45,380 nt of DNA from Clostridia bacterium. Its GTDB lineage: Bacteria; Bacillota; Clostridia; CAKSNL01; HGM11501. The stretch is taken from contig JAZQAZ010000037.1 in NCBI GenBank assembly GCA_045545475.1, positions 1 to 45,380 on the forward strand. The letters are read 5' to 3'. The translations under genes and the position numbers were made by a program. Positions 17,563 through 40,148 of the stretch are shown here, piece after piece. The notes below the pieces were generated by a model. It had not been told where the DNA came from and did no database searches. It saw only the letters and a program-made list of their open reading frames with translations. Positions within the stretch are counted from its first letter, which is position 1; the number at the start of each line of letters is the position of its first letter.

Positions 17563-17783
17563 AAAATGTGTAAAGAACTATTTGTGATATAAGCATTTTA
17601 AATGTTTATATATGTTTCCTTCCTGCGGAAAGTCTTGGGGATTTACCGCAGAATGCCTTACGCACGCAGAGGCGTTTTGTGTTAAAGACTAAAGACTGCC
17701 GCAGCCGGATGACTTTTCACCATCCGGCATCCCTCCGGGGGAAACCCCGGAGGAAACCAAAAAGCAAAGAAAGAGGGATTGTA

Positions 17784-20504: not shown

Positions 20505-20517
20505 GGAGGGATTTTGG

Positions 20518-21342
20518 TTGAACAAATTAGGTATTATATTTTCGCTTGAAAATATCTTAAACGAAAAAACCGAAGACCTTTTCAGCTTTGGTCTTGACAC
20601 GGTTCAGCTTAGCTGCTGGTGTCCTGAAAATCTTACATTGGAAAATGCGGAAAAGGTCAAGAAAATTCTTGCGAAGGGGAATCTTACAGCAACATCCGTA
20701 TGGGGCGGCTGGTCAGGCCCTGCTGTATGGAACTTTGTTTCGGGACCTAAGACGCTTGGTCTCGTTCCGAAGGAATATCGCTTCCACAGAATGCAGGAAT
20801 TAAGACGTGCCGTTGACTTTGCTGCGGCAGTCGGTGCTACGGATATGGCAACTCATATGGGTTTCATTCCGGAACAGCCCTGCTATGAAGAATACAGAGG
20901 CCTGGTTGAAGCGGTAAAATGGGTTGGTACTTATGCAAAGAGCAAGGGAATATGGTTCAATTTTGAAACAGGCCAGGAAACTCCCACAACCTTGATGAGA
21001 ACAATTGCTGATACAGGTCTTGATAACCTTGGCGTAAACCTGGATCCTGCAAACCTCATTATGTACGGCAGAGCAAACCCCGTTGATGCTGTAGGTATTT
21101 ACGGCGACAGGATAAGAGGTGTGCATCTTAAGGACGGCAACTATCCGACAGGCGACTTCTCAAAGCTCGGTTGCGAAACAAAGGTTGGAGAAGGATCGGT
21201 AAACTATCCCGCATTCATCAATAAGCTCGTTAAGGAACAGGGCTATAAAGGTGACCTTTATATCGAAAGAGAAATTTCCGGTGCACAGCAGATTGCGGAT
21301 ATCAAGGACACGATCGTATATATAAAAGAACTACTCAGATAA
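20518..21342 (+). CDS. Sugar phosphate isomerase/epimerase (xylose isomerase-like TIM barrel)
   Basis: THMGFIPE, FETGQE, NLDPANL, VHLKDG, YIERE; AAGGAGG + TTG start. Confidence 0.9.
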   Translation: MNKLGIIFSLENILNEKTEDLFSFGLDTVQLSCWCPENLTLENAEKVKKILAKGNLTATSVWGGWSGPAVWNFVSGPKTLGLVPKEYRFHRMQELRRAVDFAAAVGATDMATHMGFIPEQPCYEEYRGLVEAVKWVGTYAKSKGIWFNFETGQETPTTLMRTIADTGLDNLGVNLDPANLIMYGRANPVDAVGIYGDRIRGVHLKDGNYPTGDFSKLGCETKVGEGSVNYPAFINKLVKEQGYKGDLYIEREISGAQQIADIKDTIVYIKELLR

Positions 21343-21434
21343 AAAATAGTGTTAACGGTTGCACTAATCGGTTATGTCAGACCGGATAAAATATGCATTT
21401 TTCATCTGACTTAACAAAATGTGGAGGAATTGAT

Positions 21435-24400
21435 ATGAGTATTAAGAAAAATACAATAGCTTCGCTTTTTCTGGCAATGGCATTGTTTTTCAGCATTATA
21501 CCGCTATATGCAAGTGGTGACGTTTGTCAGAACGATGCGACGGGCAAGAAATATTCCGCAATAAAAGATGCAATGTATGAAGCAAACGGAAAAACCATAA
21601 CTCTCCTTTCGGACACTTATCTGCCCGCCGGAAACCTTGGAACAAACGGCTACACCTTGAAGGGAAACGGTCATAAGCTTATTTTGGAGGGAGATGTTAC
21701 ACTCCTTAGCGAAAAAGGAGCGGTTTTCCAGGATATCACAATTGACTTAAGCGGATTTCACTTCGCAGTAACCGAAAACTCGGGAGACAGTGTCATTACC
21801 CTCGGAAATGGAACTATCGTTGAAAACGGCTCGGGTACAAACGGCGGTGCGTTTTTGGTTAATGCAGGTGCGGAAGTAATAATGGAAGACGGAGCCGTTG
21901 TAAGAAATTCTGTTGCGGCAAAAGGCAGCGGCGGCGGTTTCTTCTTAAACGGCGGAACGCTTATAATGAAAGGCGGAACAATTGAAAACTGCAGCAGTAT
22001 AAACCGAGGCGGCGGTGTTCTTGTAAACGAAACGGGAACATTAAAGCTTTCAGGAAGTGCAAAAATTATAAACAATAAAAGTACAAGCGGTCAGAGAGGC
22101 CCGGTAAACAATGTGGAAGTAAGAGATGCCGACGGATTTATTCTTTCGGGAGCCTTTACAGGAAGTGCAGGTCTTCGATATGACGAAGGCGGCGAAGGCG
22201 TTCCCTTCGGTATTATTGAAGGAAATGTTTCGGGTGCCGATAAAATTTTATGGGATATTGATAATTCCTTAGTCGGATCTGTAAGCGGAACAAATCTTGT
22301 GATAGCAAAAGGCGGAAGTGCCAACAGCTCCGGCACAAGCACAAGTTCATCGGAAAATTCCGGAACAGCTTCCGGTAAAACAGAAATCGTTCCAGGCGGA
22401 GATGTATGTTATATAGGAAACGATTTGGGCTCGGGAATTAAATATTCCGACCTTAAAACCGCTTTATATGCGGCAAACGGAAAAACCGTTCATCTTCTTA
22501 AAAATACTTATCTTCCCGCAGGAAACATCGGAACAAACGGCTATGTGATAGACGGAACCAATATAGACGGCGGCGAAAACTTCAAACTTCTTGCAGAAGG
22601 CGATGTAACACTGCTTAACGATAAGGGAGCAATCTTTACCAACGTAACCGTTGACCTTAATTCTCACCACATTAACGTAAGTACCACAGGCTCGCCCTGT
22701 AAGGTGATTCTTAAAGAGGGTGCGGTGTTTGAAAACGGCTCCGGAACAAACGGCGGTGCATTTTTGGTTAATGCAGGAACTGAAGTAATTATGGAAGAAG
22801 GAGCCATTGTAAGAAACTCTGTTGCGGCGAAGGGAAGTGGCGGTGGCTTCTTCTTAAACGGCGGAACGCTTACCATGAACGGCGGAAGCATAGAAAACTG
22901 CAGCAGTATAAACCGAGGCGGCGGAATAATTGTAAATGAAACCGGTACGCTTATACTGACGGGCAATGCAAAGGTTGTAAACAATAAGAGCACCAGCGAA
23001 CAAAGAGGCCCGGTAAACAACATTGAAATAAGAGACGGCGACGGCCTTATATTAAAGGGTGCATTTACCGGAACTGCAGGCATAAGCTACGACGAAGGAA
23101 CCGTCGGAGTTGCAATCGGGATAGCCGAAGGCGGTGCAAGCGGAGCGGAAAAGCTTATCTTCGATAAGGATAATACGGTAAAGGGAAGCATAGCTGACGG
23201 AAAAATTGTACTTACAAAGGGCGACGGCACACCTACTCCCGTAGGAAACGGAAAGCCCCTTTGCTACATCGGTACAAATAAGGGTAAAACCTACACCAAT
23301 TTATCCGAGGCGATAAAAGCATCAAAGGGCGAAACAGTTTACCTTATGGGTGATATGAGCCTTAACACAGGCGGTTCAAGCTACAGTGCAATTATTGCAA
23401 ATATCGACGGTGGCGGCTATAAAATCAAGGCGGAAAGCGAAATCAAGCTTATCTACGGCTCCCACCTGAAGTTCACTAATGCAACCATTGACCTTAATAA
23501 CAAAAATCACTTTGTACTCCAGTATACAGGAAAGCTTACTTTGGGAAAGGGTACCATAGTTGAAAATGGTAAGGCGTCCAACGGCGGTGCGGTACTCATT
23601 TATCCCGAAGGCGAAATGTATATGGAAGAGGGAAGCTTAGTCAGAAACAACACCTGCGATGGCGGTGGCGGAGGTATCCGTGTTCACGGCGGACTTCTTG
23701 TTATGAAGGGCGGAACGGTTACCGGGAACACTTCAAACTCGGGAAGCGGTATCGGCGTAAGTGAAAACGGAAGACTGGTTCTTTCCGGAAATGCCAAAGT
23801 CGAAGGTAATATCAACAAGGCAGGTGTTGAAGAAAACATAAGACTCGACTCCAAGGATTACTTAATCTTAAATGGAGAATTTATAGGCTCAGCCGGTGTC
23901 ACAATGGCAACTGATGCTAAGGAAGGCAGTGCCTTCGGCTTAGCAAACGGTGCTGTTAAGGGAGCAAAGAAGCTTTACCTTGATTCTGACAAGAGTCTTT
24001 CAGGTTCCGTAAGCGGAAACGAGCTTGTTTTTGCTAAAACGGCATCTGCAAAGGATTCGGGAACGGGCGAAGTTGTATATAGCGAGCCTGACGGTATAGG
24101 CTATGTTGACAAAAAGGACTGGAAGGTGGAAATAAATTCAGGTAACCCCGTAAACTGGCCCCGTTTAATCGACGGTTCGCTTGTTACCTACTGGCATTCG
24201 GGATATACCGTTGAAAACAACGCCATTGTTGCAAAGGACGATCCGCCTTTCAATATTGATATAACTCTTCCTGAAGAAACCGTGATTTCTGGCTTTGGTT
24301 TTGCTAACCGCCCCGACGGCGGAGCAGGAAAAGTTGCTCACTTAAAGTTCTTCATTGAGGAAAACGGAGAATTCAAGGAAGCAGGAGATTATAAGGTAGG

Positions 24401-25415
24401 ACAGATAAACGGCTTAAGACGAGAATTTTTCACCTGTAACATAAAAACAAAAAAGGTAAGAGTTCAGATACTTGACGGAATGGGCGGTTACGGTTCGCTG
24501 GCAGAAATTGAGCTTATTTCGGAAAATAAAAATCTTAAAACAGCCAAAGATTACGAAGACTTCCTTAAAATAACAAAGGAAGACGGACTTTATAAAATTG
24601 ATAAGTCAAAGGCTTCAGCGTATTACGAAGGAGAAGTATGGGGAGGCCGTATAATACAGAACGTAATCGACGGTGAAGATACATGCTTCCAGAATCAGCC
24701 TAAGACAGGTGAACTTGAAATTTTAATAGACCTGGGGGAAAGCTATAATTTAGAGGCTATAAGTCATCAGCCGAGACTGGACGATTCTCCCGGCTACTGG
24801 TACAATTACACGATTTATGCGTCAAGCGACGGAGAAAATTATGAAGAAGTAAAGAAAACATTCCTTCGCGATTTCTCATACGACATTGTATTTGACCACT
24901 TTGATGAAACGGTAACGGCAAGATATTTCAAGTTTGCAATACACCGCGGCTACAACGGAATAATGAGCTGTACGGAAATTGATTTTTATGAGTCATATGA
25001 AGAACAGACAAGACGAATTGAAGAAAGCCGCGAAATTTACAAGCTTGTTATCGGGGATAAAAACATCACTCACAAAAACGGCACGGTAACTCTTGATACC
25101 GCACCTTACATAGAAAACGGCACTACATTTATTCCTTTAAGAGGACTCTTAGAGCTTATGGGTGCAGAAATAGCGTGGAGCGACAGAGAGCAGGGAATAA
25201 CGATTACAAAAGACGACATAAAAATTTATCTGCAGATAAGATACGAGACAGTTAAGGTAACCACACCCACCTACGGCGAGGTAAGGTATAATCTTTTGGC
25301 AGAGCCCAGAATAACTGATAACCGTACCTTCGTCCCGATAAGATTTATATCCGAACAGCTTGGATATAATGTATCCTGGGATGGCGAAACTAAAACGGTT
25401 ACCATAACCAATTAA
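21435..25415 (+). CDS. Secreted protein: 3 beta-helix modules + 2 F5/8-type C (CBM32-like) + copper-amine-oxidase-N-like stalk domain
   Basis: Signal peptide from ATG 21435 (GGAGG RBS); GGA/GGG repeats; LIDG..TYWHS; APYIENGTTFIPLR and RTFVPIRFISEQLGYNVSWD. Confidence 0.85.
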   Translation: MSIKKNTIASLFLAMALFFSIIPLYASGDVCQNDATGKKYSAIKDAMYEANGKTITLLSDTYLPAGNLGTNGYTLKGNGHKLILEGDVTLLSEKGAVFQDITIDLSGFHFAVTENSGDSVITLGNGTIVENGSGTNGGAFLVNAGAEVIMEDGAVVRNSVAAKGSGGGFFLNGGTLIMKGGTIENCSSINRGGGVLVNETGTLKLSGSAKIINNKSTSGQRGPVNNVEVRDADGFILSGAFTGSAGLRYDEGGEGVPFGIIEGNVSGADKILWDIDNSLVGSVSGTNLVIAKGGSANSSGTSTSSSENSGTASGKTEIVPGGDVCYIGNDLGSGIKYSDLKTALYAANGKTVHLLKNTYLPAGNIGTNGYVIDGTNIDGGENFKLLAEGDVTLLNDKGAIFTNVTVDLNSHHINVSTTGSPCKVILKEGAVFENGSGTNGGAFLVNAGTEVIMEEGAIVRNSVAAKGSGGGFFLNGGTLTMNGGSIENCSSINRGGGIIVNETGTLILTGNAKVVNNKSTSEQRGPVNNIEIRDGDGLILKGAFTGTAGISYDEGTVGVAIGIAEGGASGAEKLIFDKDNTVKGSIADGKIVLTKGDGTPTPVGNGKPLCYIGTNKGKTYTNLSEAIKASKGETVYLMGDMSLNTGGSSYSAIIANIDGGGYKIKAESEIKLIYGSHLKFTNATIDLNNKNHFVLQYTGKLTLGKGTIVENGKASNGGAVLIYPEGEMYMEEGSLVRNNTCDGGGGGIRVHGGLLVMKGGTVTGNTSNSGSGIGVSENGRLVLSGNAKVEGNINKAGVEENIRLDSKDYLILNGEFIGSAGVTMATDAKEGSAFGLANGAVKGAKKLYLDSDKSLSGSVSGNELVFAKTASAKDSGTGEVVYSEPDGIGYVDKKDWKVEINSGNPVNWPRLIDGSLVTYWHSGYTVENNAIVAKDDPPFNIDITLPEETVISGFGFANRPDGGAGKVAHLKFFIEENGEFKEAGDYKVGQINGLRREFFTCNIKTKKVRVQILDGMGGYGSLAEIELISENKNLKTAKDYEDFLKITKEDGLYKIDKSKASAYYEGEVWGGRIIQNVIDGEDTCFQNQPKTGELEILIDLGESYNLEAISHQPRLDDSPGYWYNYTIYASSDGENYEEVKKTFLRDFSYDIVFDHFDETVTARYFKFAIHRGYNGIMSCTEIDFYESYEEQTRRIEESREIYKLVIGDKNITHKNGTVTLDTAPYIENGTTFIPLRGLLELMGAEIAWSDREQGITITKDDIKIYLQIRYETVKVTTPTYGEVRYNLLAEPRITDNRTFVPIRFISEQLGYNVSWDGETKTVTITN

Positions 25416-25434
25416 AAAAGTGGAGGAAACAAAA

Positions 25435-28400
25435 ATGAAAAGAAAAATGAAATTTTTGGCTTTACTTGTCTGTGCAGCTATGATTTTTTTCGGCATAAGT
25501 GTATTTGCAACAGTAACAGATGCCGAAGATATTATTATTGAAGAGGAAATCATTGAAACAGAAGAGCTTCCTGAGATTGCGGAATTTTCGGAAGAAGCAG
25601 AGCTTTTCGCAGAAGGCGCTGTGTGCTATATAGGCGATGACACAGAAAATACATATACCTCTCTTAATACAGCTATTTATAATGCGAACGGCGAAACAAT
25701 ACATCTTTTAAGCGATGCTACATTAGAGGCGGCAACCAATCTCGGAACAAGTGGAGGATATGTAATTGACGGAACAGGCGAGAATGACGAAAACTATACA
25801 ATTACACTTTCCGGAGAGGTTGCTATAGCTAATGAACATTCAGGAACTCTTACTAATGTTAATGTGGATATGGCAGGCTACCGCTTTGATATAAAGGGTA
25901 CAACCGTGTTTACATTGGGAAGCGGCACAATTGTTGAAAACGGTGGCGGAAGCGACGGCGGTACAGCAATCGTAAGAAGCGGTGCTACATTAAACATCGA
26001 AGAAGGATGTATAATAAGAAACTCTACTGCATCTGCTAACGGCGGAGCGCTTCACGTAAGAGGAACTGTCAATATGAGTGGCGGAAGCATAGAAAACTGT
26101 AAGTCGGCAAACAGAGGCGGTGCAGTTGCTCTTTACGAAGATGGTGTAATGAAAATTTCCGGTAATGCAACAATTACGGGAAATATAAGCACAGCAAAGG
26201 GCGAAACAAACGTAGAAGTACGTGATGCAGATTCTTTAATCCTTGCAGATGATTTTACGGGAACTGTCGGCATAAGCTATGACTCGGGTGCCAAGGGAGT
26301 AGCATTTGCTATTGCCGATGTAGGTGCAACGGGTGCTGAAAATCTTATATATGATGAAACAGAAGCCTATGTCGGATACATAAAAGACGGTACAATTTAT
26401 TTCGTTGAAGACGGTATATGCTATATTGGCGAAGACAGACTTACGGGAACTTTTTATGAAACACTTAACGATGCTATTGCCGCTGTTGACAAAAGCGGAG
26501 TAGTTATTCATCTTGCAGGAAATGCAACCCTTCCCGGAGAAACTACCTCAACGAATCAGTACGGTTATACAATTGACGGAACAGCAACAGGTGAAAACTA
26601 TAAAATTACGCTTTCCGGACAGTACACAATCCAGAATGTTGCAGAATTTAAGTTTACCAATGTTACTTTAGACCTTAATCAGAACAATATCAATGTAAAG
26701 AGAACAGGAAGCAACTTGTGTAAAGTTGTATTGGGAGACGGTGCATCATGGATAAATGGTAATCGTGCATCCGGCTCTTACGGCGGTGCTGCTTATATGT
26801 ATGCAAATACAGAACTTATTATGGAAGAAGGAAGCTCTGTTAAAAACTGTACTGCATATAACGGTGGAGGCGCATTTTTCGTTGCTGACAATGCAAGCCT
26901 TACAATGGAAGGCGGAAGCATAACGGCATGCTCTGCTTACGGTCGTGGTGGCGGTGTGCTTGTAAGCACAAACGGTAAAATTTATATTTCAGGAAACGCC
27001 GAAATCACGGGAAACAACAGTACAGCGAATGGCGATAATCTTGAAATCCGTGATAATGATTCACTTGAACTTACCGGAGATTTTACAGGATCTATCGGTG
27101 TTACGGTAGATAACGGAGCAAAGGGAGCACCTTTTGCCCTTGCCGGAAATGATGTAACAGGTGCAGAAAACTTATATCTTGAGTCTGACAGCAGTATTAC
27201 GGGAACAAATCTTAATGGTGTACTTTTCTTCAAAGGAACAGAAGATTTCAGTTGTTATATTTCTGTCTCCTCTGTGCCCACTAAAGCTTATGAGAATGTT
27301 ATAGACGGAATCAAAGCTGCAGAAGGAAATACTGTACATCTTATTAAAAATGCAACTCTTCCTGCGGGAAATCTCGGCACATCAGGCTACGTTCTGGATG
27401 GAGCAGGAAAATACACAGTTGCTCTTTCGGGCGACGTTACAATTCTTAATGAAGCAGGAGCAGAATTTAAGAATATTACCGTTGACTTGATGCAGCATCA
27501 TTTTGCTGTAACAACCAATAACGGAAAAGGAAGCATACTTATATTCGGAGACGGAGCGGTTGTAATAAACGGTAAGGCAGCAAATGGTGGTGCAGCGATA
27601 ATAAATTCGGGTGCCACAGTAAACATTAAACCGGGAAGTGTAGTTAAAGACTGTACTTCAACCGGAAACGCCGGTGCATTCCATGTAAACGGCGGAACAT
27701 TTAATATGACCGGCGGAACGATTACAAACTGCACTACAGCTAACCGAGGTGGCGGTATCCTGGTTGTTGAAGGCGGAACACTCAATCTGTCAGGAAATGC
27801 CACTGTTATGGGAAACACCAGCTCTTATGGTGCGAGAGGTCCCGTAAACAACATTGAAATCCGTGATTTTGACTCCCTTAATATTGCAGGCGATTTTTCG
27901 GGCGAGGTTGGTATTTCCTACTATGATAACACTACCTTTACTGCGGCAGTGGATTCTGCTTTCGGTACTGCGGCTACAGGTGTTACAATTGAAAAAATAG
28001 AAAATATTAAGGCTGACAAGGCAGAACTTTATGCATATATTGACGGAAACAGTCTTAAGTGGACAAGTAAGCCTTCTGTTAGCGTTCAGGCAGACTCCGG
28101 TGTATACAGCGATAAAACCGGTGTAATACGTTTCCTTACCACCTTTGAAAGCGTATCTCCTGCGGCGGTTTCAAACTACGGAACATACGCTCTTGCAACG
28201 GATGAATTTGATATTGAAAGCGATGCATCAGTGCTCACTAAGTTCTGTAGCTTTGATGTAACACCCGGAAACGGAAAAGCTTATATAGTTGATATTGTGG
28301 AAATCCCTGAAGATAAAACAGAGACTCTTATTTCGGGAATAAGCTTTGTGAAGATAAAAGGGGTAGCGACACCTTGTTATATGCCCTATGAAAAATGCAT

Positions 28401-28464
28401 AAGCGTTGCAAGCTGTAACGGCACAATTAAAAATCTGGGCATTAAGCCTGTAAGCGGAAATTAA
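25435..28464 (+). CDS. Secreted protein: 3 beta-helix modules + C-terminal G-V-I-R-F domain
   Basis: Signal peptide MKRKMKFLALLVCAAMIFFGISVFA, acidic linker, three CYI-initiated modules, ~130-aa C-terminal domain. Confidence 0.85.
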   Translation: MKRKMKFLALLVCAAMIFFGISVFATVTDAEDIIIEEEIIETEELPEIAEFSEEAELFAEGAVCYIGDDTENTYTSLNTAIYNANGETIHLLSDATLEAATNLGTSGGYVIDGTGENDENYTITLSGEVAIANEHSGTLTNVNVDMAGYRFDIKGTTVFTLGSGTIVENGGGSDGGTAIVRSGATLNIEEGCIIRNSTASANGGALHVRGTVNMSGGSIENCKSANRGGAVALYEDGVMKISGNATITGNISTAKGETNVEVRDADSLILADDFTGTVGISYDSGAKGVAFAIADVGATGAENLIYDETEAYVGYIKDGTIYFVEDGICYIGEDRLTGTFYETLNDAIAAVDKSGVVIHLAGNATLPGETTSTNQYGYTIDGTATGENYKITLSGQYTIQNVAEFKFTNVTLDLNQNNINVKRTGSNLCKVVLGDGASWINGNRASGSYGGAAYMYANTELIMEEGSSVKNCTAYNGGGAFFVADNASLTMEGGSITACSAYGRGGGVLVSTNGKIYISGNAEITGNNSTANGDNLEIRDNDSLELTGDFTGSIGVTVDNGAKGAPFALAGNDVTGAENLYLESDSSITGTNLNGVLFFKGTEDFSCYISVSSVPTKAYENVIDGIKAAEGNTVHLIKNATLPAGNLGTSGYVLDGAGKYTVALSGDVTILNEAGAEFKNITVDLMQHHFAVTTNNGKGSILIFGDGAVVINGKAANGGAAIINSGATVNIKPGSVVKDCTSTGNAGAFHVNGGTFNMTGGTITNCTTANRGGGILVVEGGTLNLSGNATVMGNTSSYGARGPVNNIEIRDFDSLNIAGDFSGEVGISYYDNTTFTAAVDSAFGTAATGVTIEKIENIKADKAELYAYIDGNSLKWTSKPSVSVQADSGVYSDKTGVIRFLTTFESVSPAAVSNYGTYALATDEFDIESDASVLTKFCSFDVTPGNGKAYIVDIVEIPEDKTETLISGISFVKIKGVATPCYMPYEKCISVASCNGTIKNLGIKPVSGN
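25618..26276 (+). repeat. DNA-level duplication of first beta-helix module (other copy 28773-29431)
   Basis: Long identical runs such as ggtggcggaagcgacggcggtacagcaatcgtaagaagcgg and ggaaatataagcacagcaaagggcgaaacaaacgtagaagtacgtgatgc. Confidence 0.9.
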
Positions 28465-28478
28465 GGGAGGGCTTTGTG

Positions 28479-28637
28479 ATGAAAAAATTAAAGAAAAAAT
28501 ATGAAAGCCCTGCTTTAAGCATAACAGAGCTTGAAGTAGAGGATGTTATTCTTGTAAGCGGTCTTGATGCTCTTATTACAGCAGATGATGTCCTGGGTCA
28601 GGGAAAGATTCAGTGGATAGAAATTGACCTTAATTAA
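28479..28637 (+). CDS. 52-aa peptide with YxxPxL...EDVIxxSG leader-like motif
   Basis: GGGAGG RBS at 28465-28470; MKKLKKKYESPALSITELEVEDVILVSGLDALITADDVLGQGKIQWIEIDLN*; missed by ORF track. Confidence 0.85.
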   Translation: MKKLKKKYESPALSITELEVEDVILVSGLDALITADDVLGQGKIQWIEIDLN

Positions 28638-28649
28638 AAATGACTTAAA

Positions 28650-28672
28650 GGGCGGTTCAATTTGAACCGCCC
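28650..28672 (+). promoter_or_regulatory. Strong intra-operon stem-loop without U-tract
   Basis: gggcggttcaa t ttgaaccgccc directly after the peptide gene. Confidence 0.6.
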
Positions 28673-28694
28673 GTACGTGAAATGAGGGGATATT

Positions 28695-31600
28695 ATGAAA
28701 CTCAGAATTACGGCTTTTATACTGGCACTTTGTATGCTGGTGTCGGGAATAACCGTAGCAGCAACAGAGGAAGCCGTGTGCTATATAGGAGATGATACGG
28801 AAAATACCTATACATCTCTTAAAACGGCACTTTATGCAGCGGATGGCGAAGTGGTACATCTTCTTTGCGATACGACTCTTGAAGCGTCTGATAACTTTGG
28901 TACAACCGGAGGTTATATCATAGACGGAAGCGGTGAAGGGGGGAATAACTACACCATTACCCTCACAGGAAATGTGGCTATAGTTAATGAACCTTCGGGA
29001 ACTCTTACTAATGTAAATATTGATATGGCAGGCTACCGTTTTGATATAAAGGGTACAACCGAATTTACTTTCGGAAGCGGTACAGTAATTGAAAATGGTG
29101 GCGGAAGCGACGGCGGTACAGCAATCGTAAGAAGCGGCTCTACATTAAACATCGAAGAAGGATGCATTATAAGAAATTCTACTGCATCCGCAAACGGCGG
29201 TGCACTTCACGTAAGAGGAACTGTCAATATGAGTGGCGGAAGTATAGAGGACTGTAAGTCAGCAAACAGAGGTGGTGCAGTTGCTCTTTACGAAGATGGA
29301 ATTATGAAAATTTCCGGCAATGCGACAATTACAGGAAATATAAGCACAGCAAAGGGCGAAACAAACGTAGAAGTACGTGATGCGGATTCTTTAATCCTTG
29401 CGGACGATTTTACCGGAACTGTCGGCATAACCTTTGATAATGCAACTGAAGGCACGGCCTTCGGTATTGCAGAAGATGGGGCGACGGGTGCCGAAAACTT
29501 TATTTTCGATGAGGACGGCGAAATAACAGGTGCCGTTAAAAACGGAAATCTTGTTTTATATAGAAAATCCGATGCGGTATGCTATATAGGCGACGATGAG
29601 GAGTCTGGAACGGTTTACAACAGCCTTAAAGAGGCTATGACAGAAGCTGAGGGTGAGACAATACATCTTATAGCAGATACTGCATTTCCTTCCGGTAATA
29701 TTACAACCAAAGGCTTTGTGATTGACGGAAGCAATGGTGACGGAAATTACACAATTACATACGAAGGCGATGTAACGTTTCTTAATGAAGCGGGAGCAAT
29801 TTTTGAAAATGTAAACATAGACTTAAACGAAAAGCACAACAATGTTACCGTAAACGGAAGCGGAACAAAAAGCTCTGTAACACTTGGATATGGAGCAGAA
29901 CTTTATGGCGGATACGGCACTAACGGCGGTGCATTTCTTATAAATAAAAATGCTGAAGTAATAATGGAAAGCGGAGCAAAGGTTACCGGCTGCTATGCCA
30001 AAAACAACGGCGGTGCCTTCTTCATAAACGAAGGAACCCTTAAAATGGAAGGCGGAACTATAGAAGGCTGTAAGGCACAGGTCGGAAGCGGCGTTTTTGC
30101 CGGAGGAGTTGCTTTCTTTTATGTGTCGGGTGATGCAAATGTTTTGGGAAATGACTTAGCTGATGCATCAGGCAATGTGACAAAAGAGGATTCACATAAC
30201 GTGGAATTAAGATCAACTAATACCCTTAACCTTGCATCCGGCCTTACGGGAAGCATAAAGGTTTATTTTAGAAGTAACGAGCTTACCGTAAAAGAAGGTG
30301 CGGTTTTCGGAACGGCGAAGGAGAATGCAACGGGAGCCGAAAACATCGTTTCTGAAAACGACGAAACTCTTTCGGGCGTCATTTTAGGCGGAAAGCTGGC
30401 ATTTCAGAGTGCGGAATTCTGCTGTTATATTGAAGATGAAGACGGAAATATCATTTCCGCATCCCAGAGCCTCGGGACAGCCATAAAGGCGGCAAACGGA
30501 AACACAGTGCATCTTTTGAGCGATGCTGAACTATCACCCACAAATGACGGAATAAATATCCGTGGTGTGCAAAGTGCAGTGATCGACGGAAGCGACGGAA
30601 AAGGCGGCTTTTATACAATTACTCTTACAGACGACATCCGTTTTGTAAATCCGGGAACGGTTACATTCAAAAACGTAAAGCTTGAACTGGACGGACATCA
30701 TTTTGATACAACGGTATCCGACGGAAGCTGTGTTATCATATTTGACGAAAATACAGCTGTAACCGGAGGTAAGGCGGCAAACGGCGGTGCAGTTTTGGTT
30801 AATGCTGGCTGCGAGCTTATTATGAAAAAAGGTAGCGCAATCGAAAGCTGTGAAGCATCAGGCGGTGGCGGTGCAGTTTGCGTTAACGGCGGAACCTTAA
30901 CCATGATGGGCGGTAAAATAACCGGAAACAAAGCAAATAACGGCGGCGGTGTAAACGTTTCCGATACAGGTATGGTAAGGGTTTCGGGCGATGCAGTAAT
31001 TAACGGTAACACAAAAAGCGACGGAGAAACGGCTGATAATGTAAAGCTTTCGAGATATGACAGCTTTTATCTTGTCGGAGAGCTTTCGGGCAAAATAGGA
31101 ATAACTATAACAGAAGCGGGCCCCGGAATGCAGTTTGGTGTTGCGGAAGATGAAACAGACGGTGCGGATAACATCTTTATGGATTCCGATAAAACACAAC
31201 TTGGTAGTATAAAATCAGGGAAGCTTGTTTTCCCCATAACAGGTGAAGCATATATCGGCGAAAGTGCCGAGGAAGGTATGATTTACGGAACACTTACCGA
31301 TGCTATCAAGGCATCAAACGGGGAAGTGGTGCATCTTCTTTCTGATGCTTCTTTGCCGGGAGGAAATCTCATAACCGGAGAAGGCTATATAATTGACGGA
31401 AGCAAGGCCGACGGCGGAACATTTAAGATAACGCTTTCAGATAATGTGACGATTCTTAACGAAAAGAGTGCGGAACTTAGAAATGTGGAAGTTGATTTAA
31501 ATCAGAAGCATTTCCTGATTTCTGTAACAGGAAACAATAAGAGTAAGCTTATTTTAGGCAGCGGTACTGTTCTTAAAAACGGCTTTGGTGCTAACGGCGG

Positions 31601-34600
31601 TGCGGCAATTATTAATGCAGGCGGTGAAGTAGTTGTAGAAGAAGGCACCCTTATCACAGAATGCAGAGCATCAAGCGGTGGCGGTGCTTTTCACGTAAAC
31701 GGCGGAACGCTTACCCTTACGGGCGGTAAAATCACAGGTAACCACGCCGACAGTAACGGCGGTGGCGTTATCGTAGCTCAGACGGGAACAGTAAATTTAA
31801 GCGGAAATGCAGAAATTATGGGAAACACTAAAGGAAGCGACAATAAAATAAATAACTTAAGATTAAGTGACAATGATTCACTTAATCTCAATGCTGATTT
31901 TACAGGAAATGTTGGTATAACCCTTGATAATACCACTTCGGGCGATGCTTTCGGAAAAGGAGGTGCAGGAGTTTCCGGTGCGGAAAAGCTTTGGTCCGAT
32001 TTGGATTCTTCGCTTCATGGGTTTTTATCAGGCGACAGCCTTTTATGGATTACCGGAACTGTTGTAATTGATATAGCTACTGACGGCGGTGTTTACAAAA
32101 ACGAAGACGGAAGCATAAAAAGCGGTGTTTTAAGAATAATCACCGGCTTTGAAAAGGCGGAAAATACTGATATAACAGCCTACGGTACATATATTATTCC
32201 ATCAGACATTTTCGACCGTTATGAATACGATCTTTATAACGATACGGAAAATACCCTTATAGGCTACAGAAGCATTCTTACAAGCAAGGATAATATGTTC
32301 AAAGCACCCGGAGAAATAAGCTCCTTCGGCGTTGATATGGTAAATATCCCCGGCGATAAGATTGATGCGGAATTTATTCCCGTTACATTCTTTAAGTCCG
32401 GTGACAAGTATTATTTTGTAAAGCACGATGCACTCTCGGTTTCCGACATAAAGGAAGAAGGAGAAATAAAGGTTATCGGAAGCCTCACGGAGACGTTTAT
32501 GCTTCCCAAAATAAAATACCTTGCATCCGACAGCGTTTATATTGAAGATGGTGACCTTGCAAAAACACTTTTTGCAGAAAAGGTTTACTCATCGTCTTCT
32601 CTTTCGGAATACAAGTCGGGAGAGGAAATAACAACCCTTCAGGATCTTAAGAGCGAGCCTGAATTTGTCCCTGATGAAAAGTACGTGATTTACGAACTTT
32701 CTGAAATTACAAAGATTTCAGGCCTCCGTCTTATTGAAAGCGGGGGAGTAATCGCTGAAAATGCACTTATCTATGTAACGGATGATGGCGAAACCTGGAA
32801 AAAAGTCGGAAATCTCAAGGCGAGAGGATGCGGCACACTCACAACAGATTTTGGATATAATGTAAATGTAAAAGCTGTTGCGATTGAATTTCCGGAAGAC
32901 AGACTTGCAGATATTGCTTTAGCCGATATGCATATCCTAAAAGGGGAGCGAAGCTACAAGGATATATCTATTGAAAATATAGAAAACTTCAGATTTTACA
33001 GCAATACTGCGGGAGGCTTTACAGCGGTTGTCGACACACAGCAGGAATCTGCTAAAATCGAAAAGCTTTTCGACGGCGATTACAATACATACTGGCATTC
33101 GGGTTATGTATCGGTTGACGGAACCACAAAGCCTTTAATAGAGCTTCCCCATACAATAACCGTAACCTTTGAAGAGGAACGTGTGATTTCGGGAATGCGC
33201 TATATCCCGAGAAACGGCTCCAACAAAATATCGGCAGTATCCGTTTACGGAACAGTTAACGGGAAAAACTACTATCTTTTGGCGGAAAGTGAAAGATGGA
33301 GCTATGCATCAAGCGAAGACCAGGAACCGAGAATGCTTGACTTCGGCGAAAATTACAGCGTTAAAGAAGTAAAGATAGTAATAACGGCGGCAAGCAACAA
33401 TGTTCATTCCACAGGTGCGGAAATTGAATTCTTAAAGGGAAATATGGGTTATGAAACACATAATAACCTTTCGGAGGACGGACTTGTAAACCGCATAAAT
33501 GCAGAAATAACCGCAACTGACGGAGAAATATCATATGCATTTGACGGTGTGGAAAAATCTTTCTGGGAAGCAGAGGAAAATGCTTCCTTAACTGTGGAAT
33601 TTGAAAAAATGCATTCCCTTTCCGGAATAAAATACCTTTCAGGAAGCGGCAAATGTATTGAAGAAGCTGATATTTATATAAGCGAGGACGGAGAAAACTT
33701 TATAAACTTTGCAAAGGCAGCCTTTAACGATGAAAACGAATATCATTTTTATGCAAATATAAAGGTAAAAGCAATTAAAATAGATATCACGAAAAGTTCA
33801 TCGGACAAGATAAAGGTGTCTGAAATGCTTTTCCTTTCAGGGAACAGGGATTATACAGACATTCTTCTTTCAAATGAAATGGAAAGCCCTGCTTCGTGGG
33901 AGATTTCCGCAAGTGAATATGGGGATAATCCTGCTGTAAATCTCATAGACGGAGATATAAATTCCGAATGGAGAACATATTACAGCGATACAGAAGAGGA
34001 TAAAACTCCCACCGATATAATTATTGATTTCGGCGAAGATACGGAGTTTTCCGGAATAAATTATTATCCCAGACGCAGCGGAGGAAACGGATATTTTACA
34101 GCGGTTGATTTTTACATATCCGTGGAAGAAGATAAAAACGGAAATCCTGTTTGGGATTATATCGGAAGCGACAGCTACAGCTATGTATCAGGCAGAGAAG
34201 TAAAAACTACGGTATTTTCAAGAAATTACAAGGCCGGGAAATTGAGAATCTGCGTTAAAGAAGGAAAAAATCTTTATGCGGCGGGTGCGGAAATAAAGCT
34301 TCTTAAGGCTGATGCCTCAAAGGTCGTGAAAAGTGCCCGTCTTATTTCGGATAAGCTCTATTTTGATCCTGCAGAGCCCTATGAGGTTCTGGCCAACTTT
34401 GAATTCAACGAAAGCGGAAGAGTAGTGAGCATTAAATACAATGGAATGGTTATTCCGAAAAGCTTTTATTCCGTAACGGAAGAAGGTATTATTTTAAGTA
34501 CATATGTTTTTGACGATTTCGTTGATCTTGATGAAAATACGGCAGAATTTACTGTTGATTTCCTTCAGGGAGAAAATGCCCGAGTTGTTGTGGAAATAGG

Positions 34601-36701
34601 TGCAGGGGAAACATTCCGTGTGGATTTTGAAGCTGAAAGCGAAAAGGGAAGTCTCAGTGTTACAGCGATAAATTCCCTTGGCGTGTCACGTTCTGTTTCT
34701 CCGGGAGCGGAAATTAAACAGACAGAACGAATCAAAGTTGAAGCTATTTCAAAGGAGGGCTATGGCGTTGGCGAATGGGTGATTTCAAACACTACTCCGG
34801 TTTATGAAAAAATTGAAGACAGATCAGGCTGGAAGGTTGATGCATCTACCTATACAAATGAAATCGGTCTTTTAAATATGACAGACGGAAAGGATACCAC
34901 CTATTGGCACTCAGGATATTCCATCGTGGACGGAAGCCCCCGACCTGTGGAGGATAAGGATAAGAAACCCTATTATATTACACTTGACTTTGGTGAAAGT
35001 ATTGATATAGCAGGTCTTTCATTCCTTTGCCGTCAGGATTCAAGCGAGGGTAAGATAACAGCATACGAAATCTATGAAAGCTCAGACGGCATATCCTTTG
35101 ATACTCTTATCTGCAAAGGAAGCGTAAGCTATGAAAACAGAGCAGACAGAAGCGAAAAGGAGATTCATTTTGGTAAAACTGTAAATTTGAAAACTTTGCA
35201 GATTAAAATAACAGAAACCTCCGGAACCTGGGGACAGATTGCCGAGATATGGGCATTAAAGGAAAAAGCTCCTGTAGAAGGCAGGGTAATCTACAAGGGT
35301 ACTGTCTCTGAAAAATATGAAATTGACAGTGTGTCTACCGATATTAAGGTTGAGGCAGTATTTAATGAGCTTTCGGGAGAAGCAACTGTAAATTATAATC
35401 TTTCAAATATCAGCACAGAAGAGATCAAAAAAGTTGATAAGGGTGAGCCCCTTAGAATTACCTTAAAATGTGAAGGAAAATATAAGGTTCCTGAAAATGT
35501 AACTGTTAAATCCGAAGACACCGTACTAATGGCGGGAACGGACTACACTTATGAAAGAATTTCAGATACCGAAGCCTCTCTTGCGGTAAGAAACGTAAAC
35601 GGAAAAATCAGCATAACCGCATCCGGTATAATGGAAAATGCACACAGGATAAGCTTTACCGATGCCTTTGGGGCAAGCGGAGAATTGCCTGCTGATATAT
35701 ATGAAATTGAAGGCGGAAAGGTTAAACTCATAACGCCTAAGCTTTCGCTTGCAGGTTATAAGTTCGCAGGCTGGAAGGTTTACTATGACGGAATATCCGA
35801 AGAGGAAGCCAAAGTATATAAGGCAGGAGCAATGTTTACAATGATAAACAAGGATGTAAACTTTGATACCGTATGGGAAGCCTTAAAGGATAAAGAACCC
35901 GGCAAAAAGCCTTCGGGCGGCGGTGGTTCATCCGGCGGAACCATTATTGTGCCTGACAACTCAAAGTCTGTAATTGTCAATGTGGAAGGTATAGGAGAAA
36001 TTAAGCTTTCCAAGGGAGATTTAATTCCAGCTGCGGAAGAAAAGGAAGGATACACCTTCATTGGATACTACCTTGATGCGGCATACACTGTTCCTTACAG
36101 TAATTCAGGAGTAAGCGAAAGCATTACACTTTATCCTTTCTACAGAAAGATAAGACACGCATCAGAGCTTACCGATATGGAAGGCCATTGGGCTGAGGAT
36201 GCTGTCGGAGAAATGTACGAAAGCTATCTGGTAAACGGAAAGGCGGAAGGAATTTTTGCTCCAGATGATAAAATTACCAGAGCTGAATTCTGTCAGATTC
36301 TCTATCTTCTTTCTGCCAAGGTTTCAGACGGAGCAGAGCCATTTGCCGATGTAAATGTGGGAGACTGGTTTATGCCGGCTGTTTCCTGGGCGTATAATAA
36401 TAAAATAGTTATGGGAAGAAGTGAGGATACATTCGCTCCCTATGATGCTATAACAAGGGAAGATATGGCAGTTATGCTTTACCGCTTTGCAACCTATATG
36501 GGAGCACAGTGGCAGGTTGAAAAAGAAGCAGATTTTATAGATTCAAACGAAATTTCGGATTATGCTTTATATCAGGTAAGATGGGCAAAAGATAAGGGAA
36601 TAATTTTAGGATATCCCGACGGAAGCTTTAAGCCTTCAGGATATGCCTGTCGTGCAGAAGCGGCTGTAATGATAAAAAGGGCAGCTGACTTTGTAAAATA
36701 A
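28695..36701 (+). CDS. 2668-aa SLH-anchored surface protein: 4 beta-helix modules, G-V-L-R-I domain, multiple F5/8-type C domains, Ig/InlB-B-like repeats, 3 SLH
   Basis: Signal peptide; FDGDYNTYWHS, LIDGDINSEW, TDGKDTTYWHS; GYKFAGW/GYTFIGYY; FAPDDKITRAEF, FAPYDAITREDMA, GYPDGSFKP..RAEAA. Confidence 0.9.
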   Translation: MKLRITAFILALCMLVSGITVAATEEAVCYIGDDTENTYTSLKTALYAADGEVVHLLCDTTLEASDNFGTTGGYIIDGSGEGGNNYTITLTGNVAIVNEPSGTLTNVNIDMAGYRFDIKGTTEFTFGSGTVIENGGGSDGGTAIVRSGSTLNIEEGCIIRNSTASANGGALHVRGTVNMSGGSIEDCKSANRGGAVALYEDGIMKISGNATITGNISTAKGETNVEVRDADSLILADDFTGTVGITFDNATEGTAFGIAEDGATGAENFIFDEDGEITGAVKNGNLVLYRKSDAVCYIGDDEESGTVYNSLKEAMTEAEGETIHLIADTAFPSGNITTKGFVIDGSNGDGNYTITYEGDVTFLNEAGAIFENVNIDLNEKHNNVTVNGSGTKSSVTLGYGAELYGGYGTNGGAFLINKNAEVIMESGAKVTGCYAKNNGGAFFINEGTLKMEGGTIEGCKAQVGSGVFAGGVAFFYVSGDANVLGNDLADASGNVTKEDSHNVELRSTNTLNLASGLTGSIKVYFRSNELTVKEGAVFGTAKENATGAENIVSENDETLSGVILGGKLAFQSAEFCCYIEDEDGNIISASQSLGTAIKAANGNTVHLLSDAELSPTNDGINIRGVQSAVIDGSDGKGGFYTITLTDDIRFVNPGTVTFKNVKLELDGHHFDTTVSDGSCVIIFDENTAVTGGKAANGGAVLVNAGCELIMKKGSAIESCEASGGGGAVCVNGGTLTMMGGKITGNKANNGGGVNVSDTGMVRVSGDAVINGNTKSDGETADNVKLSRYDSFYLVGELSGKIGITITEAGPGMQFGVAEDETDGADNIFMDSDKTQLGSIKSGKLVFPITGEAYIGESAEEGMIYGTLTDAIKASNGEVVHLLSDASLPGGNLITGEGYIIDGSKADGGTFKITLSDNVTILNEKSAELRNVEVDLNQKHFLISVTGNNKSKLILGSGTVLKNGFGANGGAAIINAGGEVVVEEGTLITECRASSGGGAFHVNGGTLTLTGGKITGNHADSNGGGVIVAQTGTVNLSGNAEIMGNTKGSDNKINNLRLSDNDSLNLNADFTGNVGITLDNTTSGDAFGKGGAGVSGAEKLWSDLDSSLHGFLSGDSLLWITGTVVIDIATDGGVYKNEDGSIKSGVLRIITGFEKAENTDITAYGTYIIPSDIFDRYEYDLYNDTENTLIGYRSILTSKDNMFKAPGEISSFGVDMVNIPGDKIDAEFIPVTFFKSGDKYYFVKHDALSVSDIKEEGEIKVIGSLTETFMLPKIKYLASDSVYIEDGDLAKTLFAEKVYSSSSLSEYKSGEEITTLQDLKSEPEFVPDEKYVIYELSEITKISGLRLIESGGVIAENALIYVTDDGETWKKVGNLKARGCGTLTTDFGYNVNVKAVAIEFPEDRLADIALADMHILKGERSYKDISIENIENFRFYSNTAGGFTAVVDTQQESAKIEKLFDGDYNTYWHSGYVSVDGTTKPLIELPHTITVTFEEERVISGMRYIPRNGSNKISAVSVYGTVNGKNYYLLAESERWSYASSEDQEPRMLDFGENYSVKEVKIVITAASNNVHSTGAEIEFLKGNMGYETHNNLSEDGLVNRINAEITATDGEISYAFDGVEKSFWEAEENASLTVEFEKMHSLSGIKYLSGSGKCIEEADIYISEDGENFINFAKAAFNDENEYHFYANIKVKAIKIDITKSSSDKIKVSEMLFLSGNRDYTDILLSNEMESPASWEISASEYGDNPAVNLIDGDINSEWRTYYSDTEEDKTPTDIIIDFGEDTEFSGINYYPRRSGGNGYFTAVDFYISVEEDKNGNPVWDYIGSDSYSYVSGREVKTTVFSRNYKAGKLRICVKEGKNLYAAGAEIKLLKADASKVVKSARLISDKLYFDPAEPYEVLANFEFNESGRVVSIKYNGMVIPKSFYSVTEEGIILSTYVFDDFVDLDENTAEFTVDFLQGENARVVVEIGAGETFRVDFEAESEKGSLSVTAINSLGVSRSVSPGAEIKQTERIKVEAISKEGYGVGEWVISNTTPVYEKIEDRSGWKVDASTYTNEIGLLNMTDGKDTTYWHSGYSIVDGSPRPVEDKDKKPYYITLDFGESIDIAGLSFLCRQDSSEGKITAYEIYESSDGISFDTLICKGSVSYENRADRSEKEIHFGKTVNLKTLQIKITETSGTWGQIAEIWALKEKAPVEGRVIYKGTVSEKYEIDSVSTDIKVEAVFNELSGEATVNYNLSNISTEEIKKVDKGEPLRITLKCEGKYKVPENVTVKSEDTVLMAGTDYTYERISDTEASLAVRNVNGKISITASGIMENAHRISFTDAFGASGELPADIYEIEGGKVKLITPKLSLAGYKFAGWKVYYDGISEEEAKVYKAGAMFTMINKDVNFDTVWEALKDKEPGKKPSGGGGSSGGTIIVPDNSKSVIVNVEGIGEIKLSKGDLIPAAEEKEGYTFIGYYLDAAYTVPYSNSGVSESITLYPFYRKIRHASELTDMEGHWAEDAVGEMYESYLVNGKAEGIFAPDDKITRAEFCQILYLLSAKVSDGAEPFADVNVGDWFMPAVSWAYNNKIVMGRSEDTFAPYDAITREDMAVMLYRFATYMGAQWQVEKEADFIDSNEISDYALYQVRWAKDKGIILGYPDGSFKPSGYACRAEAAVMIKRAADFVK

Positions 36702-39323: not shown

Positions 39324-40148
39324 ATGCAGATAGGATGTTTTTACGATGTAATTTCTGCAGGAGTAAAAGAGATGGGGTTTGAGAATATTGATGCTTGTCT
39401 TGAAGATGCAAGAAAGCTTGGCATCTGCTCAGTTGATGTATGCTCTGCATTTCTGGAAGCGGAAGAACCTGAAATATTTGCGTCAAGACTTAAAAGACAT
39501 GGAATTGAAATTGCTTCCGTGCACGGATTTTTAAGATGCCCGTATAAAACAAAAGAGGAAAGGGAAAAGAGCATCAAGGATATGTGCGGGGCAATGGACC
39601 TTGCGAAAAGAGCAGGAGCTTCACGGTTTATGATAGTTCCGCAAAAGCCACTTCCCTTTGATGAAAGCGATATTGAAATTCTCCGGGAATTTATTATTGA
39701 GGTGTTCAGAGAATCTGCGAAATACGGAAAACGTATAGGGCTCATACCTACAGTCGAAAACTATTCCGACAGATTTTACAATTATACAACAATCGAAGAC
39801 ATTGAATATCTTCTTGCTGAAATCCCGGAGCTTTCTTTCACCTATGACAGCGGAAATTTTCCTCTGGCAGGGATTTCGGAAGTGGAAGCTGCGAAAGTGA
39901 TGGCAAAAAGAATTGTTTACTGTCACCTTAAGGATCTGGTTGTATGCGAGAAGTCCAATATATTGAGAGATGGAAAATACTACGATTCGGTTGCAATTGG
40001 AGACGGATTTATGGATAACAAGAAAGCGATAGATATTCTTAAGGAAGCAGGCTATGACGGACCTTTGATGGTTGAAATATGCGGTAATGCTGATAAATAC
40101 AAAAAATGTAAAAAATCTATTGAATATCTGAAGAGTATAGGAGTATAA
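39324..40148 (+). CDS. Sugar phosphate isomerase/epimerase (TIM barrel)
   Basis: TVENY, TYDSGNF, CHLKD, AGYDGPLMVE. Confidence 0.85.
   Translation: MQIGCFYDVISAGVKEMGFENIDACLEDARKLGICSVDVCSAFLEAEEPEIFASRLKRHGIEIASVHGFLRCPYKTKEEREKSIKDMCGAMDLAKRAGASRFMIVPQKPLPFDESDIEILREFIIEVFRESAKYGKRIGLIPTVENYSDRFYNYTTIEDIEYLLAEIPELSFTYDSGNFPLAGISEVEAAKVMAKRIVYCHLKDLVVCEKSNILRDGKYYDSVAIGDGFMDNKKAIDILKEAGYDGPLMVEICGNADKYKKCKKSIEYLKSIGV

Follow-up and report, generated by a model that had tools for sequence, protein, structure and literature searches.

What does a gene for a 52-residue peptide do directly behind a gene for a giant secreted protein? The question is raised by an open reading frame (ORF) in a stretch of 45,380 nucleotides (nt) from a Clostridia bacterium (GenBank assembly GCA_045545475.1, contig JAZQAZ010000037.1), hereafter called the window. 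The answer favored here, with moderate confidence, is that the ORF encodes a precursor made in trans, similar to those of the linear polyphosphorylated peptide (LPP) system of Bacillota, whose processed core is a ligand of the C-terminal end domain of the giant protein that the preceding gene encodes. This reading rests on (i) a conserved peptide gene family, (ii) a maturation cassette on another contig of the genome, (iii) the two co-occurrences described below, and (iv) the adjacency of peptide and end-domain genes, all of which are observed, as well as on (v) a predicted structure of the complex. Beyond these data, we infer recognition of the leader by the RRE, the cut site and phosphorylation, peptide export, actual binding, and its effect.

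The preliminary description of the window had proposed a hidden gene for a peptide with a YxxPxL leader-type motif, and this gene is real: it is one of four paralogues in the source genome and occurs in 11 of 11 genomes of the same genus, with 1–8 copies each. The 52-residue ORF, its strong ribosome-binding site (RBS), its motifs, and the U-less stem-loop behind it are all as described there, as judged by sequence and folding. A six-frame motif scan and a profile search of the source genome (2.74 Mb in 50 contigs, the window being contig C37) find exactly four small ORFs of this pattern, on C37, C20, C16, and C47. Common to all four are a basic N-terminus, the motifs YE[SA]P and [ED]D[VI]I-x-x-S, and the ending IE[IFM]D[FL], and each is preceded by a GGAGG-type ribosome site of its own. 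The peptide profile matches 19 of 41 related genomes at an E-value (E) <= 1, including all those of the same genus, where the matches always lie in open frames of 47–84 codons. An exhaustive phmmer search of 1.84 billion proteins recovers 15 cluster representatives of 48–85 residues at E <= 0.001; a word-indexed homology search returns two near-identical matches only. Scans of the peptide against Pfam and NCBIfam give no match, even at E 10 and E 1, and a profile search of the PDB with the peptide family gives repeat-protein noise only (Ika8, MpAFP) and a TfuA leader at E 0.65.

In an alignment of 28 members, P11 and S27 are invariant and K6, Y8, E9, D22, and G40 nearly so. Matches outside the genus are mostly limited to the leader (positions about 1–31) and have different cores, a combination of the kind expected for precursors. 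Across the 22-codon leader block of 22 copies, the mean pairwise differences at codon positions 1, 2, and 3 are 0.385, 0.268, and 0.583, which is the pattern of a coding frame, and a C47-type ortholog pair shows 21 synonymous changes in 24 sites versus 8 non-synonymous changes in 102. The window copy and its nearest ortholog, in genome G003, give a ratio of non-synonymous to synonymous rates (dN/dS) of 1.28. With only 12 changes between them (2 synonymous, 10 non-synonymous), the pair carries too little information to demonstrate selection on the window copy. Judged by these sequence comparisons, the ORF is a real, conserved small gene of gut Clostridia and more than a chance frame.

The leader motif is of a type with a known reader. 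According to the main text of the paper on the LPP system (lppA-K-B-S-D-N; Popov et al., Nat Commun 2026, PMC13381572), discrete recognition elements (RREs) for peptides that are made by the ribosome and modified after translation (RiPPs) bind the leader motif [Y/W]xxPx[L/V/I]. The same text describes for the precursor LppA a leader YxxPxVLxHQxIxFET that is cut after T-1 by the SipW-like peptidase LppS, aided by the RRE LppB, and a core Ser3 that is polyphosphorylated by the kinase LppK (PMC13381572). By analogy, Ser27 of the window peptide would be the phospho-acceptor (core Ser3), and its leader would be cut after EDVI (Ile24).

Family scans confirm the earlier statement that the window holds no RRE, peptidase, cyclase, or exporter. 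The conclusion drawn from that absence, that the peptide does not belong to a standard RiPP cluster, is wrong or incomplete: an operon for an HprK-like kinase, a PqqD-type RRE, and a SipW-like peptidase stands on contig C34 and co-occurs with the peptide class-wide. With this cassette elsewhere in the genome, the peptide is probably in part what the preliminary description had named as grounds for abandoning its idea, the substrate of a lasso/RiPP cluster elsewhere. The PqqD gene is the only stand-alone one in the genome, and its 89-residue product also matches lasso PqqD models (E 6e-9) and TbiB1 (5v1u, E 1.3e-6). The fold of the 234-residue protein matches PEPCK (E 2.7e-6) and HprK/P (1kkl, E 1.9e-5). 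Kinase, RRE, and peptidase follow each other in the same order in 11 of 12 same-family loci (the twelfth is cut by a contig end) and in the distant-family genome G026, the position of the peptidase directly after the RRE being conserved. The neighbors of the cassette are ThuA, AraC, SigE/SpoIIGA, and S26 peptidase genes. Two further ORFs beside it, of 114 and 84 residues, are treated as probably spurious because they have no family and show odd composition or overlap with ThuA. None of the four precursor-like genes lies on C34. The C34 cassette very probably processes the peptide.

The only other PqqD-like region above cut-off in the genome belongs to a SCIFF radical-SAM maturase (TIGR03974, E 3.8e-233; G000:C6, locus L035, 325–1698, minus strand), which represents a second, unrelated RiPP system. 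As an RRE for the peptide this region is irrelevant, the peptide being Cys-free.

In a class-wide sample, the kinase-like gene is present in 109 of 300 genomes and the peptide (E <= 0.01) in 41 of 301. The kinase-like gene accompanies the peptide in 40 of the 41 peptide-positive genomes, the exception being a match inside a 491-codon frame; because related genomes do not count as independent, the figures indicate a consistent pattern and not a probability. In eight places in seven genomes (G039:C44, G026:C84, G097:C99, G097:C98, G212:C145, G194:C1, G270:C10, and G151:C81), a leader-bearing small ORF lies on the same strand as the kinase gene, about 114–1240 nt upstream of it. The precursor lies within the gene cluster in other families, for example in G026, G039, G097, and G212, and the row in G026 reads large protein, peptide, kinase, RRE, peptidase.

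Several side observations concern these relatives. Four genomes of other families (G069, G130, G193, and G182) have 7–13 leader-type peptide matches each, far above the source genus, which hints at large precursor-family expansions served by one or two kinase genes. The kinase-like family has a short form of about 230–276 codons, which matches over its full length and accompanies peptides, and a long form of about 283–336 codons, which matches at positions ~50–231 only and occurs in many genomes without peptide matches. A 312-residue relative with a full-length match has no Pfam match. The distant-family locus L054 (G039:C44, 1218–5837, minus strand) encodes a giant protein, a 51-residue leader peptide, a 93-residue membrane protein, the kinase-like protein, and a CitMHS-type transporter. 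The stretch of L054 analyzed yielded neither an RRE nor a peptidase, and its giant protein ends in a different domain (...SPLRFRPYAKL...).

The second partner of the peptide is the C-terminal end domain of the giant protein. The window copy carries the motifs G-V-IRFLTTF, YGTYAL, YIVDIVEIP, ISGISFVKIKG, and KNLG; the motifs common to the three terminal copies of the genome are G-[VT]-IRF-[LI]-TT, YGTYA, Y-[IY]-VD, [IL]-SFVKIKG, and KNLG. It is 44% identical to the end of the 1315-residue C20 protein and 29% identical to that of the C16 protein, and R60, G77, and D114 are invariant in an alignment of 15 rows (A3). Its AlphaFold2 (AF2) model, with a predicted local distance difference test (pLDDT) score of 75.5, is an all-beta sandwich. 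The best rows of a VIA-align comparison are all FN3 at Z 8.3–7.3, a range that the tool calls common (top root mean square deviation 3.2 over 104 aligned residues), and Foldseek returns nothing at E <= 0.001. The domain is named by none of Pfam (no match), NCBIfam, and the ESM Atlas; in the latter, both peptide and end domain fall in "hypothetical protein" clusters only, the nearest named clusters being fn3 at 0.79.

In three of the four paralogous loci of the genome, the peptide gene follows a large, Pfam-less protein that shares this end domain. A three-sequence profile run against the whole genome finds three terminal copies of the domain, one internal copy in the SLH-anchored protein of the window, and nothing more. 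The preliminary description had stated that similar peptides often lie next to large secreted clostridial proteins ending in GxRF-type domains. This link is borne out: all three terminal copies have a peptide gene behind them, and 30 of the 42 copies that the A3 profile detects among the 41 related genomes (in 11 of them) have a peptide match 9–100 nt downstream on the same strand. The 12 copies without a downstream peptide are mostly internal (in frames of 1100–4900 codons) or at contig ends, and for six of them a peptide match lies upstream of the same giant gene. Seen from the other side, for 29 of 39 peptide matches at E < 1e-3 the upstream ORF ends in this domain. The arrangement terminal-domain gene, peptide gene, giant gene with an internal domain recurs at four loci (the window, G003:C363, G002:C38, and G008:C3). 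The SLH protein was also considered as a source, in cis, of a segment resembling the peptide, placed after its internal domain; none of the large ORFs of the genome matched the peptide profile at E <= 10.

Docking of a peptide strand to the domain, also part of the earlier proposal, passed a controlled complex prediction for the terminal end domain. With the last 170 residues of the giant protein (alignment A3) and the peptide (alignment A4) as input, the complex scores 0.74 (runs 0.74, 0.80, and 0.74) versus 0.23 for the best of three controls. A score of 0.74 is reached by 116 of 157 solved complexes and by 2 of 215 mismatched pairs, a calibration that holds only roughly here because own unpaired alignments were used. 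The runs have at least 61% of contacts in common, and the confident contacts place peptide residues 39–46 (LGQGKIQW) in register with domain residues 111–118 (YIVDIVEI) at an expected error of 0.5–0.9 Å. The wider predicted interface takes in the invariant R60 and D114 of the domain plus the conserved tail of the peptide. Leader and Ser27 lie outside it and would therefore stay free for the RRE and the enzymes. Foldseek and VIA-align comparisons found no solved look-alike complex that the predictor could recall. The prediction supports a model in which the C-terminal strand of the peptide docks on the end domain. Modeled alone, the end domain already forms a complete FN3-like sandwich, so that docking would add a strand and not supply a missing one.

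The proposed mechanism runs as follows. A single unit with tight translational coupling, ending at the hairpin, would yield both the giant protein and the peptide. The leader (about residues 1–24, YESPAL...EDVI) would be bound by the single stand-alone PqqD-type chaperone of the genome, the HprK-like kinase would phosphorylate the invariant Ser27, and the SipW-like peptidase would remove the leader. The C-terminal strand (residues 37–50, ...LGQGKIQWIEIDL) of the resulting core of ~28 residues may then pair, as an added beta-strand, with YIVDIVEIP, the edge strand of the FN3-like end domain, and the bound core would act as a dedicated, modified ligand or adaptor of the giant protein. A further step, tentative and on the doubtful side, is that the phosphorylated core serves as a detachable beta-strand adaptor that tethers or assembles giant proteins on the cell surface, via its phospho-Ser end or the internal domain of the SLH paralogue.

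A number of points weigh against a processed core that binds the end domain. The sequence match of the kinase to HprK_rel_A (TIGR04352) is weak and sub-threshold (E 0.0074). The match of the 163-residue peptidase to sigpep_I_arch (TIGR02228, E 1.8e-8) reaches 34.4 bits, below the cut-off of 51.85, beside one to Peptidase_S24 at E 1.5e-5. Exporter and nucleoside-triphosphate (NTP) transferase genes were not recognized beside the cassette, in a search that covered this neighborhood. The leader differs from that given in the LPP paper (YE[SA]PxLxVTE[IL]xTED[VI]I-xx-S here versus YxxPxVLxHQxIxFET-xx-S), and its Ser stands 19 residues after the Tyr, compared with 18 in LPP. The co-occurrence counts make the support look greater than it is, because they include related, non-independent genomes. 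Ten of the 39 strong peptide matches are orphans, including the C47 copy behind lysS, and the tail therefore cannot serve an adjacent domain only; the same-genus genomes G007 (97% complete) and G009 (92% complete) have a peptide ending in ...EIEIDL and no end-domain match. In the predicted complex, whose score is calibrated only in the rough sense given above, the pLDDT of the peptide is 46–58 (under 50 in at least one run) and its own fold is uncertain. The 52-residue peptide has no signal peptide, whereas the giant protein is Sec-exported. Contigs of two gut metatranscriptomes cover the flanks (27900–28149, 28686–28828, and 28947–29400) and none covers the ORF; being contigs, they give no verdict.

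All of the cassette evidence applies as well to an ordinary secreted LPP-like RiPP (a signal, an antimicrobial, or a matrix component) whose gene travels with giant genes without physical contact, through common regulation or because both belong to one mobile or duplicating module. RiPPs classically combine a conserved leader with a variable core, and the ten orphans and the two genomes with a peptide and no detectable end domain fit such a product. We regard this as a real though minor possibility. It sits less well with an adjacency that is unusually strict (9–100 nt on the same strand for 30 of 42 domain copies) and with a peptide that tracks one domain and not giant genes in general, as the 941- and 1340-residue secreted proteins of the window have neither domain nor peptide. 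The controlled complex prediction passes, moreover, and its interface is made of the conserved tail and invariant domain residues. That prediction, the tight translational coupling, and the lack of maturation genes in the window would also suit an unprocessed partner protein that donates a strand to the end domain, plugs it, or chaperones it, in which case YxxP is a coincidence and the cassette serves other substrates. However, the most conserved part of the peptide is the leader with Ser27, outside the predicted interface, the kinase-like gene is present in 40 of 41 peptide-positive genomes, leader peptides directly precede the kinase gene in eight places, and no other candidate substrate was seen for the only stand-alone RRE. 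An unprocessed partner is therefore unlikely.

The YxxPxL motif, an RRE of the lasso PqqD type, and a spacing G28...D36 that permits a nine-residue ring could speak for a lasso precursor cleaved at S27|G28 and closed by a Gly1–Asp9 macrolactam. Neither a conserved Thr at -2 nor a conserved G/A/S/C1...D/E7–9 ring pair appears in alignments A1 and A2, however, and G28 is not conserved, being S, V, or T in the paralogues. The best match to the B2 transglutaminase-type peptidase (PF13471) in the genome has E 0.24 and none is over cut-off, no cyclase stands beside the RRE, the Asn-synthase-like (PF00733) matches are on C18 and C47 and not on C34, and the cassette has a SipW-like peptidase instead. 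With cyclase and B2 peptidase beside the RRE, penultimate Thr, and ring pair all missing, the lasso reading is rejected as very improbable. It is scarcely credible, too, that no functional protein gene exists here and that the ORF is a chance frame or a cis-regulatory leader for the SLH gene. The missing metatranscriptome cover and the dN/dS of 1.28 against the nearest ortholog would allow it; conservation at the protein level (the codon-position differences and the synonymous excess of the C47-type pair), four paralogues each with an RBS of its own, and the fact that most copies have no SLH gene after them argue against it. A processed core that is a ligand of the preceding giant protein's end domain remains the reading preferred here. 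The coordinates of the features are listed in Table 1.

Table 1. Features of the peptide locus in the window and of the maturation cassette on contig C34 (positions refer to the window unless locus L040 is given).
Feature	Position	Strand	Description
Giant secreted protein	25420..28464	+	1014 aa from GTG 25420; likelier start ATG 25435 behind GGAGG
C-terminal end domain	27952..28461	+	about 160 aa, unnamed, FN3-like beta-sandwich
Docking strand GKAYIVDIVEIP	28273..28308	+	domain residues 108-119, including invariant D114; predicted edge for peptide tail
RBS GGGAGGG	28465-28471	+	abuts stop (28462-28464) of upstream 1014-aa ORF; 7 nt to ATG
Peptide gene (P0001)	28479..28637	+	52 aa plus stop; ATG 28479, TAA 28635-28637; encodes MKKLKKKYESPALSITELEVEDVILVSGLDALITADDVLGQGKIQWIEIDLN
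Leader motif YESPAL	28500..28517	+	[Y/W]xxPx[L/V/I] type; P11 invariant, Y8 and E9 nearly so
Ser27 codon	28557..28559	+	residue invariant; putative core Ser3 by analogy with LppA
Core tail DVLGQGKIQWIEID	28587..28628	+	residues 37-50; predicted parallel beta-strand addition to end domain
GC-rich hairpin	28650-28672	+	10-bp perfect stem; between peptide gene and SLH gene
SLH-anchored paralogue	28695..36701	+	2668 aa; beta-solenoid N-terminal region, internal end domain, 4 F5/8 type C, 3 SLH
Internal end-domain copy in SLH protein	31953..32489	+	about aa 1087-1265; E 5.2e-9 (3-sequence profile), E 1.7e-40 (A3)
Kinase/RRE/peptidase operon	L040 10751-9306	-	HprK-like kinase, PqqD, SipW-like peptidase
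HprK-like kinase, 234 aa	in L040 10751-9306	-	invariant P-loop SGTGKT; AF2 pLDDT 93
PqqD (RRE), 89 aa	L040:9781-10050	-	PF05402 E 1.1e-14, over cut-off
SipW-like peptidase, 163 aa, soluble	in L040 10751-9306	-	nearest archaeal-type signal peptidase I / SipW

The peptide gene is closely fitted to its neighbors. Measured from the stop codon of the giant gene, the first in-frame ATG of the peptide gene lies at -65 to +17 nt in 14 gene pairs. An extension of the giant protein by readthrough or frameshifting was rejected because the two genes are in different frames, the gap between them varies, and every copy starts at an ATG with an RBS of its own. The hairpin behind the gene has a folding energy of -18.8 kcal/mol (z -3.41; 2 of 200 shuffles are equally stable) and no T-run 3' of it, and it is likely to be the 3' end, a stabilizer, or a partial terminator of the giant-gene/peptide unit. 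Comparable hairpins lie 3' of the peptide gene in 7 of 12 copies examined. In the orthologous peptide genes of L010 and L027, the stems GGGGCGG/CCGCCCC and GGAGCGG/CCGCTCC differ by compensatory changes, again without a T-run. Giant-gene/peptide units may regularly carry a U-less hairpin on their 3' side.

The window as a whole is a glycan-degradation locus with GH78 and GH106 rhamnosidases, a GH1 enzyme, and four large secreted proteins in a row. From ATG 25435, the giant protein has ~1009 residues, a signal peptide (N-terminus MKRKMKFLALLVCAAMIFFGISVFA), and beta-solenoid-like GGA repeats; it is without a wall-anchor domain. Scans against Pfam and NCBIfam give no match at cut-off or at E <= 0.001, and two weak sub-threshold Pfam matches have E 0.004–0.005. 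The giant protein (25435–28461) is a tandem paralogue of the N-terminal part of the SLH protein (28695–31100), with 52% identity over about 800 residues, and the peptide gene sits precisely between the two. The 941- and 1340-residue secreted proteins (17679–25415) end in a Cu_amine_oxidN1-type domain and have no G-IRF domain and no peptide gene after them. Three C-terminal solutions are thus found side by side in the window: Cu_amine_oxidN1, SLH, and end domain plus peptide. Two 274-residue xylose-isomerase-like TIM-barrel genes (20518–21342 and 39324–40148) flank the giant-gene block, each placed directly after a large glycan-related gene. A 147-residue PHP-domain ORF and the 125-residue family-less ORF after it overlap by 17 nt (40220–41024) and are possibly one frameshift-split gene.

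If the favored reading is true, many dispersed precursor genes would depend on a single enzyme cassette, and each would be welded to a gene for a giant secreted protein with one particular end domain, the predicted binding site of the peptide tail. Ribosomal modified peptides would then be protein-specific adaptors on the surface of abundant gut bacteria, and it would be clear why micro-ORFs of this kind stay unannotated by the thousands behind giant genes. If binding fails, the data still extend the LPP kind by a large precursor family without a name and by a minimal K-B-S cassette.

Addition of a beta-strand to Ig- or FN3-like domains is familiar from donor-strand complementation in chaperone-usher pilins and from "dock, lock and latch" adhesins. 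The window peptide would resemble them, should the prediction be right, in that a short segment pairs with an exposed edge strand of a surface beta-sandwich. It differs from them in that a gene of its own would supply the strand, as part of a leader-bearing and probably modified peptide. Relations to strand-addition systems by sequence or family were not found, and the likeness is one of mechanism. Phosphorylated lasso peptides of the paeninodin type (PadeA/B1/B2/C/K), described in part in PMC13381572, share the [Y/W]xxP leader, the discrete RRE, and an HprK-like kinase that acts on a core Ser. Unlike them, the present system has no macrolactam cyclase or B2 cysteine peptidase with its cassette, no Thr at -2, and no conserved ring pair.

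The closest known system is LPP, as the main text of PMC13381572 presents it. In both, a YxxP leader stands at the N-terminus of the precursor (YE[SA]P is found in all paralogues here), an acidic residue lies close to the cut, which is putative here, Ser is placed two residues into the core, and the C-terminus is variable. Both have a discrete PqqD-type RRE, an HprK-like kinase, and a SipW-like peptidase (a candidate one here) in the order K-B-S and no cyclase, and in both the neighboring genes concern the cell surface or glycans. Compared by eye with the LPP consensus, the leader keeps Y, P, a hydrophobic residue at +5, the acidic residue near the cut, and Ser; H, Q, F, and T are lost. The systems also differ in that (i) the precursor genes here are dispersed, off the cassette contig, and behind giant secreted-protein genes, (ii) no LppD (MsbA-like) exporter or LppN transferase was recognized next to the cassette, where the search for them was made, and (iii) the hosts are a gut Clostridia lineage here and Bacilli there. 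The terms "Clostridi", "adhesin", and "surface protein" do not occur in the main text of PMC13381572, its supplementary tables apart, and a literature search found no publication on a link of LPP-type peptides to giant secreted proteins, again with the supplements apart. The preliminary description had called the pair of peptide and domain undescribed. This stands, as far as the search reached, for the genomic association of peptide and end domain. The system is not wholly undescribed, being closest to LPP, which was published in 2026. On the published main text, the system works like LPP and is not a strict member, because it lacks the full leader consensus and a precursor in cis and no exporter or transferase was recognized beside the cassette. 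If the adaptor reading is true, LPP-type RiPPs would gain a structural job in cell-surface assembly, as opposed to that of free bioactive peptides. The biological function of LPPs is stated as unknown by the authors (PMC13381572, 2026), and the Clostridia variant offers them a concrete, testable partner.

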